DNA from: Candidatus Poribacteria bacterium
GTDB lineage: Bacteria > Poribacteria > WGA-4E > WGA-3G
Assembly: GCA_963665235.2 (NCBI GenBank)
Contig: CAXXLX010000001.1
Span: 4,256,001 to 4,320,000 of the forward strand
Direction of reading: 5' to 3'
DNA length: 64,000 bases
Part shown: positions 1,459-60,815 of the stretch, in pieces
Layout: every line of letters begins with the position of its first letter
Position numbering within the stretch: the first letter of the stretch is position 1
The notes under the pieces: generated by a model
What the model was told of the DNA's origin: nothing
The model's input: only the letters and a program-made list of their open reading frames with translations
Database searches by the model: none
Made by a program: the position numbers and the translations under genes

Positions 1459-2082
1459 ATGGCGATAAGTGCTGTCCAAACATACCTTAGCCCAGAAGAA
1501 TACATCGCTTCAGAACGTAAAGCAAAACCTGACGCGAACACAGTCAGAAATGAATATATTCAAGGTGAAATTATCGCTATGTCCGGGGCAAGTTTTACAC
1601 ATAATCTTATTAAAGGGAATATCTTTGTTCAACTTCACAATCGTTTGATAGAAAGCAGCTGTGTCGTTTTCGCCAATGAAATGCGTGTCGGTATCCCTTC
1701 AGCAAAATCCTACTTTTACCCTGATGTAGGCGTCGTTTGTGATGAACCGCGCTTTGAAGACAATGTTTTTGACACACTCCTGAACCCGATTGTTATTGTA
1801 GAGGTCCTCTCTCCAAGCACCGAGGGCTATGATAGAGGTGAAAAGTTCTCGCGCTACCGACAGGTCGCTTCCTTGAAAGAATATATCCTTGTTTCACAAG
1901 ATAGCGTGAACGTTGAACGTTTTCTGCGAAAACGTGATGATTGGAGTTACACTTTCTTTCAAGGACTTGAACAGCAACTTCCGTTAACGTCTCTTGAGTG
2001 CGAATTCCCCTTGCAGGAAATATACAAGCGCGTCACATTTCCTGAAACGTCTGAGGGCACTATATGTACTACTCAGGGTTGA
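1459..2082 (+). CDS. Uma2/DUF820 family PD-(D/E)xK nuclease-like protein
   Basis: YFYPDV, IVEVLSPST, YDRGEKF and LKEYILVSQ signature. GGAGG RBS. Confidence 0.9.
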   Translation: MAISAVQTYLSPEEYIASERKAKPDANTVRNEYIQGEIIAMSGASFTHNLIKGNIFVQLHNRLIESSCVVFANEMRVGIPSAKSYFYPDVGVVCDEPRFEDNVFDTLLNPIVIVEVLSPSTEGYDRGEKFSRYRQVASLKEYILVSQDSVNVERFLRKRDDWSYTFFQGLEQQLPLTSLECEFPLQEIYKRVTFPETSEGTICTTQG

Positions 2083-53444: not shown

Positions 53445-53514
53445 ACTAGTCATAATGGGATGGAGGCTGCCTGAGGAATATCGGCAGCCTCTTCTGATTT
53501 GTAACCGAACTTAA

Positions 53515-53656
53515 ACTCTGGGTCGAGAGAGTGTGTTATCATAATGATTAGGTCGCAGGTTCGAGCCCTGCCAGCAGTCTGAGCATGTGTCATGTGAAGC
53601 CTACTGTAGCTCAGTGGAAGAGCAAATCAAAATGCATTCCAATCCTTATCCAGAGT
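53515..53656 (+). ncRNA. yrlA: YrlA-like Y RNA, module A1
   Basis: Terminal stem ACTCTGGGTCGAG / CTTATCCAGAGT with bulged C. T-arm GCAGGTTCGAGCCCTGC precedes D-arm TAGCTCAGTGGAAGAGC (permuted tRNA order). rsr is nearby. Confidence 0.88.
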
Positions 53657-53665
53657 CGCATTTGT

Positions 53666-53740
53666 GCGGGCCGAAGTATTGTGTTATCCTCCGTTTACTC
53701 TCGGGGCCGGAATCCCGAGCGCAATACACACCTTGTCCGC
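53666..53740 (+). ncRNA. Short Y RNA-like module B1
   Basis: GCGGGC-C-GA / TTGTCCGC Ro-type stem, upper stem GTATTGTG/CGCAATAC, internal hairpin CTCGGGG/TCCCGAG. Confidence 0.75.
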
Positions 53741-53762
53741 CATGAAGAAATATTTTTTTAAT

Positions 53763-53792
53763 TTGACAACAGACACCTAAATGTGATATAAT
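53763..53792 (+). promoter_or_regulatory. Consensus sigma70 promoter upstream of Y RNA pair 2
   Basis: TTGACA-18bp-TATAAT. Confidence 0.7.
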
Positions 53793-53793
53793 A

Positions 53794-53945
53794 ACCCAAG
53801 TTGCTACTTATAAGTTTTTAGACCTGGAAACACCGTCTTTAATGAAAATATGCTGATAATTAGCTAATATTTGTCCGGTTCACTTCCAATTCGCACACAA
53901 ATATGCACAATCTGGAAGATTATGCTACTATGTGGCAACTTAGGT
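53794..53945. mobile_element. 152-bp MITE (inverted copy of 19156-19307)
   Basis: TIRs and 7-bp TSD TATAATA. Confidence 0.85.
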
Positions 53946-54030
53946 TATAATATATAATTGCTGTATGAAAATGGATGTGCGCTGCCTAAGAAATATTGGC
54001 AGAGCCTCCTGATTCGAAGCCCAACTTAAA

Positions 54031-54157
54031 CTCTGGGTCGCGAGAGTGTGTTACCCCAGCGCAGGTTCGACTCCTGCCAGTAGACCAAGCTTCATGCGAA
54101 GCCTACTGTAGCTCAGTGGTAGAGCAAAACTTCAACGCATTCTGTTCTTATCCAGAG
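54031..54157 (+). ncRNA. yrlA: YrlA-like Y RNA, module A2
   Basis: CTCTGGGTCG / TTATCCAGAG stem, T-arm at 54061-54077, acceptor-like CAGTAG/CTACTG, D-arm TAGCTCAGTGGTAGAGC. Confidence 0.88.
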
Positions 54158-54167
54158 CCATATTTGT

Positions 54168-54225
54168 GCGGGCCGAAGTATTGTGTTATCTTTGAAAGAG
54201 CATTCGCAATACACATCTTGCCCGC
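54168..54225 (+). ncRNA. Short Y RNA-like module B2
   Basis: GCGGGCCGAAG ... CTTGCCCGC with upper stem GTATTGTG/CGCAATAC. Confidence 0.75.
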
Positions 54226-54273
54226 CACCGATTTATAACTGAAGAATTTAAGGTGAAAATATAGGGAGGAACA

Positions 54274-54504
54274 ATGAAAACGTTTTCGATACAAACACTT
54301 ATCGCGCTATTCCTCATCAGCGGCATACATTTTGTTTTCGCAGATTGTCCTGATGAGCAACTAAAGGCTGAAGGTTCGTTTTTCATCAATGAAGCGGATG
54401 AGGCCTATATCTACGGGCAGGCTTCAGTAAGCAATCTCACCTATTGGCCCGCCAAGAACATTGAGCAAGCCCATTGGCCCGCCCTTCTCTTTAAGAGAGC
54501 TTAG
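54274..54504 (+). CDS. Small secreted hypothetical protein or gene fragment
   Basis: GGAGG RBS and signal-peptide-like N-terminus. Probably truncated or frameshifted. Confidence 0.4.
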   Translation: MKTFSIQTLIALFLISGIHFVFADCPDEQLKAEGSFFINEADEAYIYGQASVSNLTYWPAKNIEQAHWPALLFKRA

Positions 54505-54662
54505 ATTAGTAGTGACCACTCCGTCAGTTGCTGGCACTACTATGAAAAAGAAAAAGAGACTTTCACCGTTTATTGGGCATACCGGCTGGTTGTCGATGAG
54601 GATGCACGGTATCAGGCGAATCCGCGATATGGTCCTATGATTCTGCTGTAGGAGAAAAAACA

Positions 54663-55637
54663 ATGCGCACCCTTTTTATTATCAGCATACTCTTCATCAG
54701 TATCGTGCCCGTTGCCTCCGCAAAAATCGTGTGGATGGCGTTCTGGGAAATCTGTGTCATGGACGATGATGGCAGCAACCGCCAAAGATTGACACATAAT
54801 GATCGCTATGACACGAAACCACGCTGGTCACCCAATGGAAAGTGGATCGTTTTTCAGGGCGAACAACCTAAGGAAACCAATGAACAAAATCATGATCTGT
54901 TCCTCATGAATATAGATGGAACACAGATACGGAAACTTACCACCTACACAGGGCTTGATGTAAATCCAGACTGGTCCCCCGATAGTCAACACATAGTCTT
55001 TACAAGTACGCGAGGTGATGTGACGAGTCTTCATATCCTGGATGTTGAGACACAAGATGTCCGCGACCTCACGCGCACCCTAAAGGGGCAGGCCGCGGAT
55101 AGCGCGGCTTGGTCTCATGATGGGAAACAGATTGCCTATGTAGGCAAGACTCTAAACCCCTTCACATCCGCCATCTACATCATAGGGGCAGATGGTAAAA
55201 ACCCACGTGCCCTCTTCCGCCCCGTGGTTGCACAGTACCATTCTCCCGACTGGTCGCCGGATGGGAAACATATTCTGTATGGCGAAAAAAAAGCCGTAGG
55301 CAAAATGCGGATTTCAGATAAAATCGTCATTCGCACCGTTAATGGGAATTTGGTAAAGGAATTAGAAATGCCGGCGCTTGCGAAATGGTCAATACAAGCC
55401 GCTTGTTGGATGGGGACGAAACATGTTCTCATTGATGCCATAGAAGACTTCAAAGCCGCTGATGGGGGGCAGAGTGATATCTATCGGTATACACTATCCA
55501 CCGATGAAATCGTCAATCTCACGAAATCAGATAGAACTAACGACGGTTTTCCGGATTGGATAGATGATGGGGCACTAGCTGTTTCTCCTGTGAGCAAACT
55601 CGCCATCCGATGGGCACAACTCAAGCAAATCCATTAA
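54663..55637 (+). CDS. Secreted TolB-like (PD40) beta-propeller protein
   Basis: Repeated P.WSPDG..I.F units. C-terminal VSPVSKLAIRWAQLK. Confidence 0.88.
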   Translation: MRTLFIISILFISIVPVASAKIVWMAFWEICVMDDDGSNRQRLTHNDRYDTKPRWSPNGKWIVFQGEQPKETNEQNHDLFLMNIDGTQIRKLTTYTGLDVNPDWSPDSQHIVFTSTRGDVTSLHILDVETQDVRDLTRTLKGQAADSAAWSHDGKQIAYVGKTLNPFTSAIYIIGADGKNPRALFRPVVAQYHSPDWSPDGKHILYGEKKAVGKMRISDKIVIRTVNGNLVKELEMPALAKWSIQAACWMGTKHVLIDAIEDFKAADGGQSDIYRYTLSTDEIVNLTKSDRTNDGFPDWIDDGALAVSPVSKLAIRWAQLKQIH

Positions 55638-55659
55638 GACAGTATCACAACTAAGAAGG

Positions 55660-56103
55660 TTGATTAACAGTAGCAAAAAATCTGTGTTTTTCAGAACATA
55701 AGCTTATGTTACTAAACCTTTTAGGCAATTAAACGTCTAAATTAATGTTTTACATCTGAATGTTCCGCGTTGTGAGTTGTGTTACTTAAACACCATGTAC
55801 AGAGTGCTTAGCGGGCATCCGCCCAATGTTTGCCTGGGTGGGCACAACCTCTGACAACGAAAGTAGCGAAAACCAAGCTTTGATGGAAATAGCAGGCGGA
55901 AATTGTGATAAAAACCTGCTTGGTAGTGTGACTTCGAAGCACGTAAAAAACATCGAACCTTCACAGAAGAAGCAATAAGCGTTCGCTGCCTTGTGTAGCG
56001 AACTTTGGGAGATGACCCCTGGCTGTATTCGTACAGCTTGCAAAACGTGTGTGGAAGTGAAATACATAGTATTCCACGGAAATATACAGTTTAATATCAT
56101 CGG
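55660..56103 (+). ncRNA. Large structured ncRNA, copy 1 (ROOL-like candidate)
   Basis: Duplicated at 56487-57422 with compensatory changes in at least two helices. No credible ORF. The ROOL assignment is from recalled motifs only. Confidence 0.75.
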
Positions 56104-56208
56104 TAACTGATGCCAACACTCACCCAACTGCGCGATGATGCGTTTTCAGCGTCCCAAGAGGCACATAACCGCATGAAACGGGAGATGGCTATCTACAAAA
56201 ATGAACTT

Positions 56209-56340
56209 AATTCTGGGTCGCGGGGATGTGTTACCGGGTCGCAGGTTCGACTCCTGCCAGTAGACCGAGCGTCATGCGAAGCCTACTGTAGCTCAGTGGT
56301 AGAGCACAATATTCAACGCATTCTGTTCTTATCCAGAATT
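56209..56340 (+). ncRNA. yrlA: YrlA-like Y RNA, module A3
   Basis: AATTCTGG/CCAGAATT terminal stem, compensatory relative to A1. T-arm then D-arm. Confidence 0.88.
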
Positions 56341-56347
56341 TTATTTG

Positions 56348-56433
56348 GCGGGCCGAAGTCCTACGTTAACTGCCCGTATAGTAATACACAAAGTGTATCT
56401 ATACTTAAATATCGTAGTACACACCTTGCCCGC
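56348..56433 (+). ncRNA. Short Y RNA-like module B3
   Basis: GCGGGCCGAAG ... CTTGCCCGC with a long internal hairpin GTATAG..ATACAC/GTGTAT CTATAC. Confidence 0.75.
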
Positions 56434-56472
56434 TGCCTTAAAAAAACGTTAAAAATATAAACCAAACTTAAA

Positions 56473-57519
56473 CTCTGGGTCGAGGATTGATTAACAGTAG
56501 CAAAAAACCTCTATTTTTCTAGGAACATAAGCTTATGTTCCTAAACCTTTTTGAGAACTTGACATACTCTCCCAGCTAAAGCAAGGGAGATTCTTTTAAA
56601 AAGTTCCGCTACGCGTTAGCTATTGGATTGTGGTTTTCAGACGTGTGAACGTCAACGGAGATGCTTGGGCTGTTCCAAGTCTTACTGCCCCTAACTCAAA
56701 GGAATGCCCTTCGTGCTTCGCACCTTCTTTATGCGTTGTGAATCAGTGCTTTGGTATCCAATGCAGCATGACCCGTCTTTTGGATACCGAAAGCATTGCA
56801 CAAAAATGTGGATATTGACTGGGTATCGCCAGAACATCAGCACACAACCCTACCATAGGTTGAGGTTCGGAACTTCAACATTGGTGGCGTTGAAGGTGGT
56901 AATCCGAACCACTGATGATATATATATTATACCACATTTTAATGCAAAAGTCAAATTAAAATTTTAGCTCATGCGCCGCTACTACATCCCCCAGCTAAAG
57001 CACGGGGGTTTTGTAGCGGAAGACTTGATAAATTTATGTTTTTAATGTTTTACATCTGAATGTTCCGCGTTGTGAGTCGTGTTACTTAAACACCATGTAC
57101 AGAGTGCTTAGCGGGCATCCGCTCAATGTTTGCCTGGGTGGGCATGACCTCTGACAACGAAAGTAGCGAAAACCAAGCTTTGATGGAAATGAGAGGGCAA
57201 AGAAAACGTGAAAAAACCTCTCTGGTAGTGTGACTTCGAAGCACAATAAAAACCTCGAATATTCACAGTATAAGCGTTCGTTGCCTTGTGTAGCGAACTT
57301 TGGGAGATGACCCCTGGCTGTATTTATACAGCTTGCAAAACGTGTATGGAAGTGAAATACCTAGTGTTCCACAGGCTTCAGGCTACAAGCCTGCTCTTCA
57401 ATATACAGTTTAATATCATCGGCGCACATCATCGGAAGCAAGCAGGTTCGACCCCTGCCGGCGCACTTGTGTTTGACGCGCAAGTTTGCCGAGCAATGTC
57501 CGCTGTTTCTTATCCAGAG
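56473..57519 (+). ncRNA. Y RNA module A4 enclosing copy 2 of the large ncRNA and a T-arm
   Basis: 5' strand CTCTGGGTCGAG at 56473 and 3' strand CTTATCCAGAG at 57509-57519. They flank the large RNA (56487-57422) and GCAGGTTCGACCCCTGC (57442-57458). Confidence 0.7.
56559..57027 (-). mobile_element. Non-autonomous IS200/IS605-family element inside large ncRNA copy 2
   Basis: Hairpins CTCCCAGCTAAAGCAAGGGAG and CCCCCAGCTAAAGCACGGGGG. On the minus strand it follows TTTAT and ends TCAA. Removal restores the palindrome AACATAAATTTATGTT. Confidence 0.82.
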
Positions 57520-57528
57520 ACACATTTG

Positions 57529-57593
57529 GCGGGCCGAAGTCCTACGTTAACCTATATTTATCCCATATAACCCGTAGGACACACCTTGCCCGC
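57529..57593 (+). ncRNA. Short Y RNA-like module B4
   Basis: GCGGGCCGAAG ... CTTGCCCGC with upper stem GTCCTACG/CGTAGGAC. Ends 21 nt before the rsr ATG. Confidence 0.78.
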
Positions 57594-57614
57594 TACATTT
57601 CAAAAGGTGACATC

Positions 57615-59261
57615 ATGAGCTATTTAGGGAAATATTCTCCATTGCATCCACATCAGCGGCAGCCGTTGGACGAAAAACAGGTCCAAAATTCTGCCGGCGG
57701 ATACGCCTATCCTGTCTCTATCTGGACAAACTTAGACCGGTTTCTCATTTTAGGGACCGAAGGCGGCTCCTATTACGCCACAGAACAGGATTTGACGAAG
57801 GTCAATGTCGATGCTGTCAAGCAGTGCATTGCCGAGGATGGGGTTCAAGTTGTTGAGCGGATACGTGAGATTTCTGTCTCCGGGCGCGCCCCGAAAAATG
57901 ACCCCGCATTATACGCACTAGCCCTTGCCTTTACCCATGGCGATACGGCAACGAAACGAAAAGTGGAAGAGGTCTTCTGTGATGTCGCACGTATCGGCAC
58001 ACACCTATTCAACTTTGTGGTGTTTGTAGACGGTATGCGTGGCTGGGGCAGGTCGCTACGCCGATTAGTCGGCAACTGGTACCGCACGAAGGACGATAAC
58101 ACCTTGGCGTATCAGGTCCTGAAATATCAATCTCGGAACAGTTGGCGGCATGCGGATGTCCTTGCAAAGTGCCACTACGGTGAAAACCGGGGCATCTACC
58201 GTTGGATAAAAGGGCTTGACACGGATAAGCGTATTGTGCATCGCACCCTACAAAATGAAGAAAAGACAGCTACCGTTTACGAGGCCACCGACGCTTTGCC
58301 TGAATTGCTCGCCGGATATGAGGACCTGAAACGCACAGAGAAACGCGTGGATGTTATCCAGCTCATTGAGAAACATCAATTCACCCACGAAATGGTGCCG
58401 AACGAGTGGAAAAATGAAACGGAAGTATGGGCGGCGTTGCTACAGAACATGCCCGTTATGGCAACGGTGCGAAACCTCGGTAAGATGACGCAAATCGGGT
58501 TGTTGAAACCTTTTGGAGCAGAGGTTCAAACCGTGCTAGAAAGACTCTCCGCTGAGGCGATTCAACGTTCGCGCATCCATCCTATCCAAATCCTTATGGC
58601 GTTGATAACATACAAGGCAGGTAAGGGAGTGAGAGGCAGCTTAACCTGGGAGCCCGTGCCGCAGATTGTTGATGGGTTGGACGCTGCGTTTTATATGGCG
58701 TTCGATAACGTTGAACCGAGCCAAAAGAACACGCTCCTAGCACTTGATGTCTCTGGGTCAATGGCAGGCAGAACTGTGGCAGGATGTGAAGGCTTAACAC
58801 CGCGTAATGCGTCCGCTGCCATGGCACTCGTAACCGCACGCACGGAACCGCATTATCATATCTTCGGGTTTTCAGAAGGTTTTGTGACCCTGCCGATTAC
58901 AGCAAACGATACGTTGGATAGTGCTATTAAAGCTGTCTCTGGATTGCCCTTTGATGGCACCGATTGCGCTCTCCCCATGCTGTATGCATTGGAACATAAA
59001 CTACAGATAGACACCTTCGTCATCTATACAGATAATGAAACGTGGTATGGCGACATTCATCCGAAAACAGCATTGGACAACTATCGGCAAAAGATGGGGC
59101 GACCCGCAAAGTGTGCTGTTGTCGGGATGGTGGCGAACGACTTCTCTATCGCTGACCCAGAGGATGCGGGCATGCTCGATTTTGTCGGGTTTGATACCGC
59201 TACACCTGCATTGCTCAGTGATTTCGCTAAAGATGCAGACATCTCCGATGAAACGGCGTAA
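57615..59261 (+). CDS. rsr: Ro60/TROVE-domain RNA-binding protein with vWA domain
   Basis: NSAGGY, LDRFLILGTEGGSYY, GWGRSLRR, KYQSR..W.H.D, RIHP, DVSGSM (MIDAS), YTDNETW and GFD motifs. Start at ATG after AAGGTGA. Confidence 0.95.
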   Translation: MSYLGKYSPLHPHQRQPLDEKQVQNSAGGYAYPVSIWTNLDRFLILGTEGGSYYATEQDLTKVNVDAVKQCIAEDGVQVVERIREISVSGRAPKNDPALYALALAFTHGDTATKRKVEEVFCDVARIGTHLFNFVVFVDGMRGWGRSLRRLVGNWYRTKDDNTLAYQVLKYQSRNSWRHADVLAKCHYGENRGIYRWIKGLDTDKRIVHRTLQNEEKTATVYEATDALPELLAGYEDLKRTEKRVDVIQLIEKHQFTHEMVPNEWKNETEVWAALLQNMPVMATVRNLGKMTQIGLLKPFGAEVQTVLERLSAEAIQRSRIHPIQILMALITYKAGKGVRGSLTWEPVPQIVDGLDAAFYMAFDNVEPSQKNTLLALDVSGSMAGRTVAGCEGLTPRNASAAMALVTARTEPHYHIFGFSEGFVTLPITANDTLDSAIKAVSGLPFDGTDCALPMLYALEHKLQIDTFVIYTDNETWYGDIHPKTALDNYRQKMGRPAKCAVVGMVANDFSIADPEDAGMLDFVGFDTATPALLSDFAKDADISDETA

Positions 59262-59494: not shown

Positions 59495-60121
59495 TTAATC
59501 TGAATAGTTGCATGAGACTTCTTTGTTGAAAAAAATCGGGTCATGCCAATAACATCCGACACACGTTCCATTGTATAATCCATTACCACGCACTTGGCTA
59601 ACTTGATAACCTAAGCGTTTCGCGTCAAAACGCTGCCCTGTCTCTCGACACTCAACACAATGTTGTCTCTTGGCATAATTAGCAGCCTTCGATAGTGGTT
59701 GAAAATCATCAAGTGTTACCTGATTTGCGTCACTCAGCCTCGGGTCGTCCAGTCTTCCGTCTTTATGGTCACACTCTGGACCACTTGTTCCCAATACAAC
59801 ACAGCGTTGTGCCCTCACCTCCTCTCTAATGTTATTGGGTATTGGCTTTTCAGTAACCGGGACTTTTCTAAAGCCTTGCAACTCAACGTGAGTTATTTTA
59901 CCTCTGCCTTCAGGGTGGCGGCGAATATTGTAATATCGTGATAAACTACCGTCTTTGCGTATCCAATCACCCCCGTTTCCAAACTGGAGTGATGCATATT
60001 TTCCTACAAATTCTGTAACTGGAACTGGACAGCTGAAACCGAGATCATCTGGTTTAGCAAGCTGAATAAACAGCGCAGGCTTGCTTCCTTTTCTAAACTG
60101 AGAGCCTTGATCGTTACTCAT
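59495..60121 (-). CDS. NlaIII/IceA1-like HNH restriction endonuclease
   Basis: LF..LA.PD..G.S, GNGG.W.R, DHKDGR.DD, DFQPL, KRQ.C..C..TG.RFDA and CVGCY..DP motifs. Confidence 0.8.
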   Translation of the reverse strand: MSNDQGSQFRKGSKPALFIQLAKPDDLGFSCPVPVTEFVGKYASLQFGNGGDWIRKDGSLSRYYNIRRHPEGRGKITHVELQGFRKVPVTEKPIPNNIREEVRAQRCVVLGTSGPECDHKDGRLDDPRLSDANQVTLDDFQPLSKAANYAKRQHCVECRETGQRFDAKRLGYQVSQVRGNGLYNGTCVGCYWHDPIFFNKEVSCNYSD

Positions 60122-60815
60122 TCTCAATCCTCTCTTGTGAAATTTTCGCATAATTGGAATCTATATCACATCCTGCAAACCTTCGGAAATTTCTGACGGC
60201 AGCAACACCTGTAGTTCCTGCTCCAAGGAATGGGTCCACAACAAGATCGCCCTGGTTACTGTGCTTGCGCACTAAATCCTCAAATAACTCTAAGGGTTTT
60301 TGTGTAGGGTGTTGTCTTTTACCCTTATGTCGAGGGATTGGATATTCATAGATACCAGAGTCATACTGGCTATGGAAAGTAGGTGTACCAACTTTGACCC
60401 CTGCAACAGCCATTTCTCGACTGTTAGAAAGATAAGTAGAGCGCATATTTAACGGGACAGGGTTGGTTTTCTGCCAGATAATCTGGCGAATCATTTTAAA
60501 TCCTGCTAACTCCATAGCCTCTTTTACCTTACCTATCTTCCAAAGATCATACCACACGATGGCAGTTCCGCCACGACGCAAGGATTTATAAAACACCCTT
60601 GCCATCGCTTCGAGATTTATCTCAACGTGATCCCATACACCGAAGTCCATACTAACGGCGAATTTCTTTTCACCGTTCACCACTGCCGAAAATCCTGTTT
60701 TTTTACTAATGCAATATGGTGGATCTGTTAAGATAAGGTCTACTGATCCAGCCGGTAACGAATCCATAAATTCATGATAATCAGATACTTTGACGCTAAA
60801 TTCTGTAAAGGGCAT
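60114..60815 (-). CDS. Beta-class N4/N6 DNA methyltransferase
   Basis: TDPPY, HPTQKP and DPFLGAGTT motifs. Stop overlaps the endonuclease start. Confidence 0.9.
   Translation of the reverse strand: MPFTEFSVKVSDYHEFMDSLPAGSVDLILTDPPYCISKKTGFSAVVNGEKKFAVSMDFGVWDHVEINLEAMARVFYKSLRRGGTAIVWYDLWKIGKVKEAMELAGFKMIRQIIWQKTNPVPLNMRSTYLSNSREMAVAGVKVGTPTFHSQYDSGIYEYPIPRHKGKRQHPTQKPLELFEDLVRKHSNQGDLVVDPFLGAGTTGVAAVRNFRRFAGCDIDSNYAKISQERIENE

Follow-up and report, generated by a model that had tools for sequence, protein, structure and literature searches.

A 64,000-nucleotide (nt) stretch of DNA (the window) from a Candidatus Poribacteria genome, labelled G000, carries two copies of an element of about 450 nt upstream of rsr, the Ro60 homologue. 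This element is very probably a gene-less derivative of an IS607-type insertion sequence (IS) that combines a guide RNA scaffold with a conserved structured core. Coordinates are window positions unless prefixed G000:C1. The initial annotation had described the span 55660-57422 as a duplicated noncoding RNA (ncRNA) with compensatory mutations, a candidate ROOL-like RNA lying next to Y RNAs. The duplication is present, with copies at 55660-56103 and 56486-57422, and the span runs from the left end of copy 1 to the right end of copy 2, with one undamaged Y RNA unit and a nested repeat also lying inside it. Read from its sequence, each "ncRNA copy" is a left end (LE), ~250 nt and a right end (RE), that is, an IS607 derivative without an open reading frame (ORF). 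Copy 2 is longer than copy 1 because a 474-bp repeat is nested inside it. The copies are ~93% alike overall, with in-register pieces of 149 nt (97%), 103 nt (94%), 64 nt (83%) and 23 nt (100%). BLAST gave 89% over 339 nt, and the alignable parts are ~55742-56103 and 57042-57422.

The two ends of the element place it among the transposons of its own genome. The last ~100 nt matched six other sites in G000 at 78 to 82%, and each of these RE sites was the 3′ end of a TnpB gene, continuing ~50 nt past the stop codon to the shared ...ATCATCGG before the sequences diverged. The LE block (from 55660; repeated from 56486) matched the opposite end of the same IS elements, ~1.8 kb away; by BLAST, 36 to 43 nt of the LE were 81 to 97% identical to seven other LE sites in G000. 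The parent elements encode a 195-amino-acid (aa) serine recombinase, TnpA (Resolvase, 1.1e-19, with a weak MerR HTH), overlapping a TnpB with the Pfam domains OrfB_IS605, Cas12f1-like_TNB and HTH_OrfB_IS605, and the nearest solved relatives of the latter are TnpB-like proteins. Since a serine recombinase together with TnpB is the IS607 gene set, the parents were assigned to IS607, and this IS607-type insertion sequence is present in seven copies in G000. The initial annotation had itself named a match to a mobile-element end as grounds for abandoning a free-standing ncRNA; both ends match IS607-type left and right ends in the same genome, and that reading therefore fails. In both window copies, a palindrome (GAACATAAGCTTATGTTAC) stands in place of the tnpA promoter region of the LE, and in copy 2 this palindrome scans as terminator-like. 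The boundaries of copy 1 are placed to within ±2 nt, with G/GG common to element and flank. RNA-library contigs from related strains match up to 55659 and then continue with ~30 letters that were not placed on the window.

A protein-coding reading of the element was rejected. No frame was common to both copies, and blastx against TnpA and TnpB saw the last 18 aa of TnpB alone; a 50-aa ORF in the core was stopped early in the L083 copy, as judged by eye from the alignment. Among the IS607 copies of G000, one (L077, G000:C1:73990-75630) carries a ~160-nt tandem-repeat insertion between LE and tnpA, and its tnpB is truncated, the match ending at residue 376 of 529.

Contigs from related strains (RNA libraries X7 and X9 and DNA run X6) join 56484 to 57421/57422, which is the empty site of copy 2. 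To the left of this joint lies the start of Y RNA unit 4 (AAACTTAAACTCTGGGTCGAGG) and to the right lies the rest of the same unit. Since halves of one Y unit flank the joint, copy 2 is inserted within the Y RNA gene nearest to rsr. At the element boundaries, the two window copies pass directly into different flanking sequences. The 5′ flank ended in a purine-rich RRGG in 11 of the 12 copies read (AAGG, GAGG, AGGG or GGGG), the exception being L085, with AAAGC. In the literature, IS607 inserts in GG-containing targets and its RE ends in CGG; target-adjacent motifs (TAMs) of IS607 TnpB are reported as purine rich (AGGAG, GAGGG) or as TGGG. The marks of IS607 membership were found: a discrete insertion, seen in the empty site and the differing flanks, and a GG target with a CGG-ended RE. 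The flank that could be read as the guide of copy 1 occurs once in G000. For the corresponding flank of copy 2, the search for a target gave a single 18/20 match within an unrelated ORF, with no RRGG before it, and this was taken as chance.

The RE of the mini-elements is a putative omega-RNA scaffold. The segment homologous to it covers the last ~50 nt of tnpB in the IS copies and runs to the element boundary. ATCGG was terminal in 15 of 15 alignment rows, and beyond this end the flanks diverged among the 16 right ends compared, one pair having a common flank. The scaffold alignment comprised the last 170 to 195 nt of both window copies, six IS copies, one solo remnant and six right ends from genome G013. 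RNAalifold predicted six helices, including a GAUGA strand paired with UCAUC beside the 3′ end (95-99/220-224), and this helix covaries in two rows. Across the 15 rows, 95.3% of the cells were paired and 19 of 40 pairs were changed on both sides, compared with 9.2±2.0 after shuffling; none of 500 shuffles reached as high, and controls with slid partners gave 1 to 4. The scaffold also folded better than shuffled sequence (z-score, −2.59). This arrangement agrees with published omega-RNAs, which have consecutive stem-loops, a pseudoknot to the scaffold 3′ end, a CGG at the RE and a GG-containing TAM or target. A hairpin (CAGGCTT/AAGCCTG) that the initial annotation had counted as a gain in copy 2 does exist, but it is no gain, as five of the seven IS607 copies (c, d, e, f and g, those that were read) carry it.

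Other right ends were noted in the course of this comparison. A solo right end in G000 (L078, G000:C1:458742-458839, minus strand) is a diverged, scaffold-like sequence, 70% identical, with compensatory hairpin changes; no LE was recognized for it, and it lies ~120 nt upstream of an HU-like gene. In G013, an ORF-less IS607 derivative of ~290 nt (L010, ~1501-1790, minus strand) is without the core rod; in its LE, a promoter-like TTGATA-17-TACAGT has been retained immediately before the scaffold, so that the derivative looks like a stand-alone omega-RNA gene. Full-length IS right ends must encode LVDEPW and read GGTAGATGAACCC at that position. The ORF-less mini1/2, rem458, L010 and L091 read GGGAGAT(GA/AG/AA)CCCC there, lengthening a small G/C pairing, and other ORF-less lineages (the G115/G118 major type, L085 and L102) are without this change. 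The derivatives with GGGAGAT...CCCC suggest that the RNA fold tightens after the coding constraint is lost.

Between LE and RE lies the core, a ~200-nt multi-helix RNA domain found in this mini-element family only (Table 1). Helices H1 to H4 form a long interrupted rod with hairpins H5 and H6 at its tip, and hairpins H7 and H8 follow. H1 to H7 were derived by RNAalifold from 12 cmsearch matches, and H8 was added by eye from the alignment; minimum free energy (MFE) folds had overlooked H3. For the counts, pairs were mapped through copy 1 onto MAFFT alignments that were not fitted to the structure. In the core (8 rows, 50 pairs), 91.8% of the cells were paired and 26 pairs were changed on both sides, compared with 11.9±2.2 after shuffling, with none of 500 shuffles as high. 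Sliding the partners by 1 to 3 columns left 5 to 7 such pairs and 40 to 49% pairing. For the whole RNA (7 rows, 89 pairs), 94.7% of the cells were paired and 41 pairs were changed on both sides, compared with 20.2±2.7 (0 of 500 shuffles as high; slid controls, 3 to 10). H6, H7 and H8 each showed three to five different pair combinations across lineages; H7, for example, reads AGCAGG/CCTGCT, GAGAGG/CCTCTC, GACAGG/CCTGTC, AGAAGG/CCTTCT or GATAAG/CTTATC. The L102 copy, which was absent from the structure derivation, scored 76.8 bits with few noncanonical pairs, and its central helices differ in sequence and pair alike. Several core pairs are G-U in nearly all rows, which fits an RNA of the plus strand (the guide-scaffold strand) and not duplex DNA.

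These results bear out much of what the initial annotation had seen between the two copies. The change of GTTGTG (55776-81)/CACAAC (55843-48) to GTCGTG/CATGAC is present and amounts to one compensated pair plus one G-U. AGCAGG (55891-96)/CCTGCT (55915-20) becomes GAGAGG/CCTCTC with three compensated pairs, which were also recovered by RNAalifold on both copies. The GCTGTA/TACAGC stem is kept while its loop changes from TTCG to TTTA, and GTTCGC becomes GTTCGT with pairing kept via G-U. The RNAalifold consensus of the two copies has eight substitutions in paired columns, none of which breaks a pair; this count is weak, since the structure was fitted to the same two sequences. The broader claim, of a noncoding sequence whose base pairing is under selection, is upheld by covariation across five to six lineages in four genomes. 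The homologues that the initial annotation had proposed to collect were obtained with covariance models, and its two helices fall within the 50-pair covarying core.

Table 1. Positions of the mini-elements, their parts and adjoining features in the window
Feature	Position	Strand	Description and basis
Mini-element copy 1	55660..56103	+	~444 nt; LE-core-RE, no ORF; ends match IS607 LE and RE
LE, copy 1	55660..55722	+	Homologous to LE of full-length IS607 copies; genome matches, alignment
Core domain, copy 1	55747..55942	+	Eight helices; RNAalifold on 12 cmsearch matches, MAFFT counts; no Rfam match
H1	55747-56/55882-90		
H2	55761-65/55863-68		
H3	55774-83/55841-51		Contains GTTGTG/CACAAC
H4	55791-94/55837-40		
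H5	55797-800/55804-07		
H6	55812-21/55827-36		
H7	55891-96/55915-20		AGCAGG/CCTGCT
H8	55926-29/55939-42		
Variable linker, core to scaffold	55943..55980	+	7-nt indel between copies; alignments
RE/putative omega-RNA scaffold, copy 1	55981..56103	+	~80% identical to IS607 tnpB 3′ end and downstream
RE nexus-like hairpin	55981-56003		
RE helix	56011-15/56097-101		
RE hairpin	56021-38		
RE helix	56043-53/56083-92		
RE hairpin	56056-78		
Flank readable as omega-RNA guide of copy 1	56104..56123	+	Position right after RE; putative, from published TnpB biology
Y RNA unit 3	56196..56445	+	Intact; between both mini-elements, belongs to neither; YrlA 36.4 bits, E 1e-5
Y RNA unit 4, 5′ start	56466..56485	+	AAACTTAAACTCTGGGTCGAGG; severed by copy 2, remainder 57423-57605; alignment with Y units
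Mini-element copy 2	56486..57422	+	~937 nt with nested repeat, ~463 nt without; empty-site contigs, alignment to copy 1
Nested PATE-like repeat	56559..57032	undefined	Nonautonomous, 474 bp; hairpins TCTCCCAGCTAAAGCAAGGGAGA and TCCCCCAGCTAAAGCACGGGGG near its two ends
Core domain, copy 2	57042..57244	+	cmsearch 233 bits with first covariance model, by construction (model built from window copies)
RE/putative omega-RNA scaffold, copy 2	57276..57422	+	Extra hairpin 57362-57385 (CAGGCTT...AAGCCTG)
rsr (Ro60 homologue)	57615..59261	+	Pfam vWA_Ro60 2.1e-61, TROVE 1.2e-35

To trace the family, we searched with both sequence and structure. BLAST with the core (55723-55975) gave no true match elsewhere in its own genome, in 40 relatives, 176 Poribacteria genomes, 54 Ro loci, plasmids or phages. 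A two-block core pattern and a 21-mer from the scaffold each had no matches in genome contigs and none in metagenome contigs. Covariance model R1, which was trained on both window copies, gave full-length matches of 59 to 107 bits in three other genomes (4 of 111 genomes, counting G000). A second model, built from the R1 matches (R2), brought the total to 15 copies, carried by 4 of the 151 Poribacteria genomes searched: two in G000, six in G115, three in G118 and four in G095. A degenerate 25-mer of the core, scanned across 185,579 species, matched in the same three Poribacteria metagenome-assembled genomes only.

All 11 copies that were aligned or read through had the order LE-core-RE and measured 395 to 450 nt, apart from one of 575 nt. 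The 10 copies read outside the window had eight distinct 5′ flanks, and the orthologous pair L083/L089 had common flanks. All four carrier genomes have open tnpA frames, with ~89% identity in G115, G118 and G095, and in the copies of these three genomes the LE keeps TTGACA-type promoter boxes before the core. Three copies have annotated flanks: L092 lies between genes for an FGGY kinase and MoaC, L102 immediately precedes a GFO-type oxidoreductase gene, and the third lies by an ORF. In silico removal of the 10 copies in other genomes produced no real gene-spanning ORF; the apparent ORF across the L092 insertion proved to be two separate genes.

Several observations weigh against the element being a guide-RNA-bearing IS607 derivative with a functional core. 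No Rfam guide RNA family (e.g., RAGATH-18) matches the element at E≤10, and the omega-RNA identity is drawn from position, homology and covariation, TnpB binding being putative. The alignment rows are few and related (five to six lineages), and 3 of the 7 to 8 are nearly identical; most rows also served to derive the structure, so the counts overstate their independence. On its own, the core shows no folding advantage over shuffled sequence (z-scores, +0.37 and −0.82), and MFE z-scores for the whole element and the core were not significant. The window copies are without the −35 and −10 boxes of the LE promoter, a promoter scan found no plus strand promoter within them, and the two copies may be relics that are no longer expressed. 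RNA-library contigs cover the core at a depth of 5 to 12, but such contigs do not exclude DNA and give no strand. Finally, BLAST overlooked relatives that the covariance model found, so further relatives may be missed.

If the element were an inert relic, its core would be filler DNA, either captured or remaining after an IS607 lost its genes, with covariation arising from shared descent, recombination among family members or hairpin-forming DNA. This is an unlikely explanation, although the missing thermodynamic signal of the core and the lack of a recognizable promoter in the window copies fit it. So do the small number of lineages (five to six), given that related rows can exceed shuffles without any structure, and the 290-nt mini-element of G013, which has no rod, showing that the rod is not required in every derivative. 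A variant RNA-library contig fits as well: it joins ...GATAAAAAACCT straight to AAGCGTTCG, so that ~60 nt (~55916-55976, comprising the H7 3′ arm, H8 and most of the linker) are gone. Filler DNA does not readily account for 26 of 50 pairs changed on both sides at 91.8% pairing, which collapses to 5 to 7 pairs and 40 to 49% when partners are slid. Nor does it account for the multiple pair combinations of H6 to H8, the strand-specific conservation of G-U pairs or the different sequence with the same pairing in L102. An ORF-less IStron would fit a covarying multi-helix fold, and its architecture and size are the same as reported (ends, upstream structured RNA and 3′ omega-RNA, from 482 nt up); moreover, copy 2 is sense-oriented inside a Y RNA gene, where splicing would help. 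We nevertheless consider an IStron very unlikely. IStron introns are reported to match the Rfam model Intron_gpI (RF00028), and this model had no match on the element at E≤10; in the whole genome it gave one weak match (19.8 bits) elsewhere, although the same search yielded matches in 8 of 14 control genomes. No P3/P7-type pseudoknot was found in the predicted fold, a nested rod that ends in a three-way tip. The spliced-looking joint in the RNA libraries was also present in a DNA run, and it is therefore an empty site and not a product of splicing. The three other copies with annotated flanks are intergenic or just upstream of genes. A U at the end of the 5′ flank is a feature of group I introns; here the last base is G in 11 of the 12 copies read and C in the remaining one.

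It is hardly credible that the element is a ROOL-like host ncRNA of the Ro/Y RNA system, duplicated along with the Y units. Such a reading draws on its place in the Y RNA array upstream of rsr, where both copies precede a T-arm-like module of a Y RNA. ROOL is an RNA of ~580 nt that recurs beside tRNA genes in Firmicutes and phages. The element resembles ROOL (RF03087) as a large ncRNA with many helices, associated with mobile DNA and here near tRNA-like genes. It differs in belonging to another phylum, in being bounded by transposon ends and in its length, an RNA of ~360 to 400 nt against a 574-position model. Neither ROOL-type length nor placement by tRNA genes was found: the element measures 395 to 450 nt, ARAGORN found no tRNAs in the window, and the annotated copies lie by unrelated genes. 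The likeness to ROOL proposed in the initial annotation did not hold, as there was no ROOL match at the gathering score (99.1 bits) in the window or at E≤10 in 55400-57800 and 55640-56130. The model check proposed alongside it likewise returned no GOLLD, OLE or group I/II intron match at the gathering score in the window or at E≤10 in these two stretches, and HEARO gave none either. A whole-genome ROOL search at E≤1 also found none, but 14 control genomes were equally silent. In Rfam at large, the whole window had no matches at gathering scores, and at E≤10, in the two stretches just named, only YrlA-like neighbors and chance hits (snoU109, sRNA41, TCL6_2 and sR19) appeared. The supposed tie to Y RNAs gave way as well: the element was absent from all 54 of the other Ro loci compared (17 of them poribacterial), and the 3 flank-annotated copies among the 13 in other genomes adjoin unrelated genes. 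In the window itself, copy 2 lies inside a Y RNA gene instead of alongside one, the element is bounded on both sides by transposon ends, and the Y units of related strains are adjacent without the element. Given the 54 Ro loci without it and these adjacent Y units, the Y RNA neighborhood is an accident of insertion.

We thus return to a gene-less IS607 derivative, for which the following mechanism is proposed. The LE and RE are kept as the ends for the serine recombinase TnpA, and the RE would double as a TnpB guide RNA scaffold that reads into the flank. TnpA of the autonomous copies would move the mini-element in trans, as their co-occurrence suggests. Where it is kept (G115, G118 and G095), the LE promoter would drive a single plus strand RNA made up of core, scaffold and flank-derived guide. 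TnpB from elsewhere may then load the scaffold and cut empty donor sites, so that the element is retained. This retention role has been proposed for palindrome-associated transposable elements (PATEs) that bear omega-RNAs, and PATEs are said to "often encode omega-RNAs" acted on in trans. Selection on a miniature inverted-repeat transposable element (MITE) acts on its own spread, and we therefore suppose, tentatively, that the core serves the RNA in which it lies (its stability, its folding, or the processing or loading of the guide RNA) and neither the host nor Ro. More doubtful is the idea that the core represents a new functional RNA class, through which an IS607 element without proteins survives by parasitizing TnpA and TnpB with RNA alone. 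In that case the core could capture or regulate TnpB as an accessory domain, or act as a ribozyme in guide RNA processing or in excising the element from transcripts; this would parallel the group I intron of IStrons by an unrelated fold.

The closest known systems are ORF-less IStrons and PATEs, which like the element have no protein gene, an LE and RE as in autonomous elements and a scaffold at the RE. Both need TnpA and TnpB in trans, at a size comparable to the 400 to 480 nt of the element, and IStrons also have an upstream structured RNA. ORF-less IStrons are known from 482 nt, and PATEs with omega-RNAs are in print. Unlike in IStrons, the upstream RNA of the element is not a group I intron by Rfam and belongs to no Rfam family. 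Unlike PATEs, which were described for IS200/IS605, the element belongs to the serine-recombinase IS607 branch and was found in Poribacteria only. The omega-RNAs, or right-end RNAs (reRNAs), of IS607 elements (CboIStron and ISFba1) likewise start at the tnpB 3′ end, reach the RE boundary and continue into the flank. They share with the element the consecutive stem-loops, an upstream strand pairing with the scaffold 3′ end, the CGG end and the GG flank. In contrast with the ISFba1 reRNA, the mini-elements match neither RAGATH-18 nor any other Rfam model and carry an extra domain of ~200 nt before the scaffold. The RAGATH-18-derived scaffold of the ISFba1 reRNA is 187 nt long, and given this length, H7 and H8 may belong to the scaffold itself. 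Literature searches joining Poribacteria and TnpB found nothing, and those joining at least two of IS607, MITE and structured RNA found nothing relevant; supplementary tables lay outside these searches. Guide-RNA-bearing transposon relics are known, and what is new is the ~200-nt covarying core, without a described family, before the TnpB scaffold.

The span of the two elements takes up most of the 1,978 nt that separate rsr (57615-59261) from a PD40-repeat gene (54663-55637). The Ro protein of the window is 84% identical at the amino acid level to those of the nearest Ro loci, in Candidatus Poribacteria. Upstream of rsr, four tandem Y RNA units lie at 53507-53745, 54024-54232, 56196-56445 and, interrupted, 56466-56485 plus 57423-57605. 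In each, a tRNA-like module that is closed by the stem CTCTGG...CCAGAG and contains T-arm-like and D-arm-like parts precedes a separate stem of the Ro-binding type, GGCGGGCCGAAGT...ACACACCTTGCCCGC; unit 4 is without the D-arm-like part. The Rfam YrlA model scored 27 to 36 bits on the window units, against a gathering score of 69. The units adjoin a TROVE/vWA_Ro60 gene, and such units are kept upstream of rsr in 17 Poribacteria loci. Unit 3 is 74 to 80% identical to units upstream of rsr in other Poribacteria. Unit 4 was recognized by alignment to the Y units of the window and of other Poribacteria and from contigs with its uninterrupted form. In other Poribacteria, a single Y unit or a pair of them immediately precedes rsr. 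An extra Y unit copy lies outside the window, at G000:C1:4231513-4231639.

The same array has a second difference from related strains. A 1,962-nt segment (54240-56201) separates two Y units and contains, besides the PD40-repeat gene and copy 1, a small ORF and a spacer of 98 nt. Contigs from related strains (three RNA libraries and one DNA run) place the two Y units adjacent without this segment; their joint, from 54239 to 56202, omits both the PD40 gene and copy 1, and the PD40 gene has a different context in those strains. A perfect sigma-70 consensus lies between Y units 1 and 2 on the plus strand (53763-53792; TTGACA, 18 nt, TATAAT and an upstream TG). Contig joints and loose ends cluster at 53787-53970, where another repeat or insertion may sit. 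Downstream of rsr, a DNA methylase gene (N6_N4_Mtase) and an IceA-like gene (PF05315) overlap each other on the minus strand (59495-60815), and the two are probably a type II restriction-modification pair.

The 474-bp repeat nested in copy 2 is itself repeated in G000, with at least nine further near-full-length copies and dozens of end fragments, and direct hairpin motifs lie close to each of its ends. These ends recur on a 1.4-kb element (L080, G000:C1:63521-64934) that encodes a 400-aa TnpB-like protein (OrfB_IS605, Cas12f1-like_TNB). Because it shares its ends with an element encoding a TnpB-like protein, the 474-bp repeat looks like an IS605-type PATE.

For genome annotation, the lesson is that what passes convincingly for a duplicated ncRNA with compensatory changes may turn out to be a mobile element. 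The Y RNA array of this genome has also undergone rearrangement, as the insertion broke one of its Y RNA genes. If the core acts on TnpB, guide maturation or transposition, it would be a second independent structured RNA to have joined IS607/TnpB, after the introns of IStrons, and it could help in designing guide RNAs that act in trans for compact TnpB editors.

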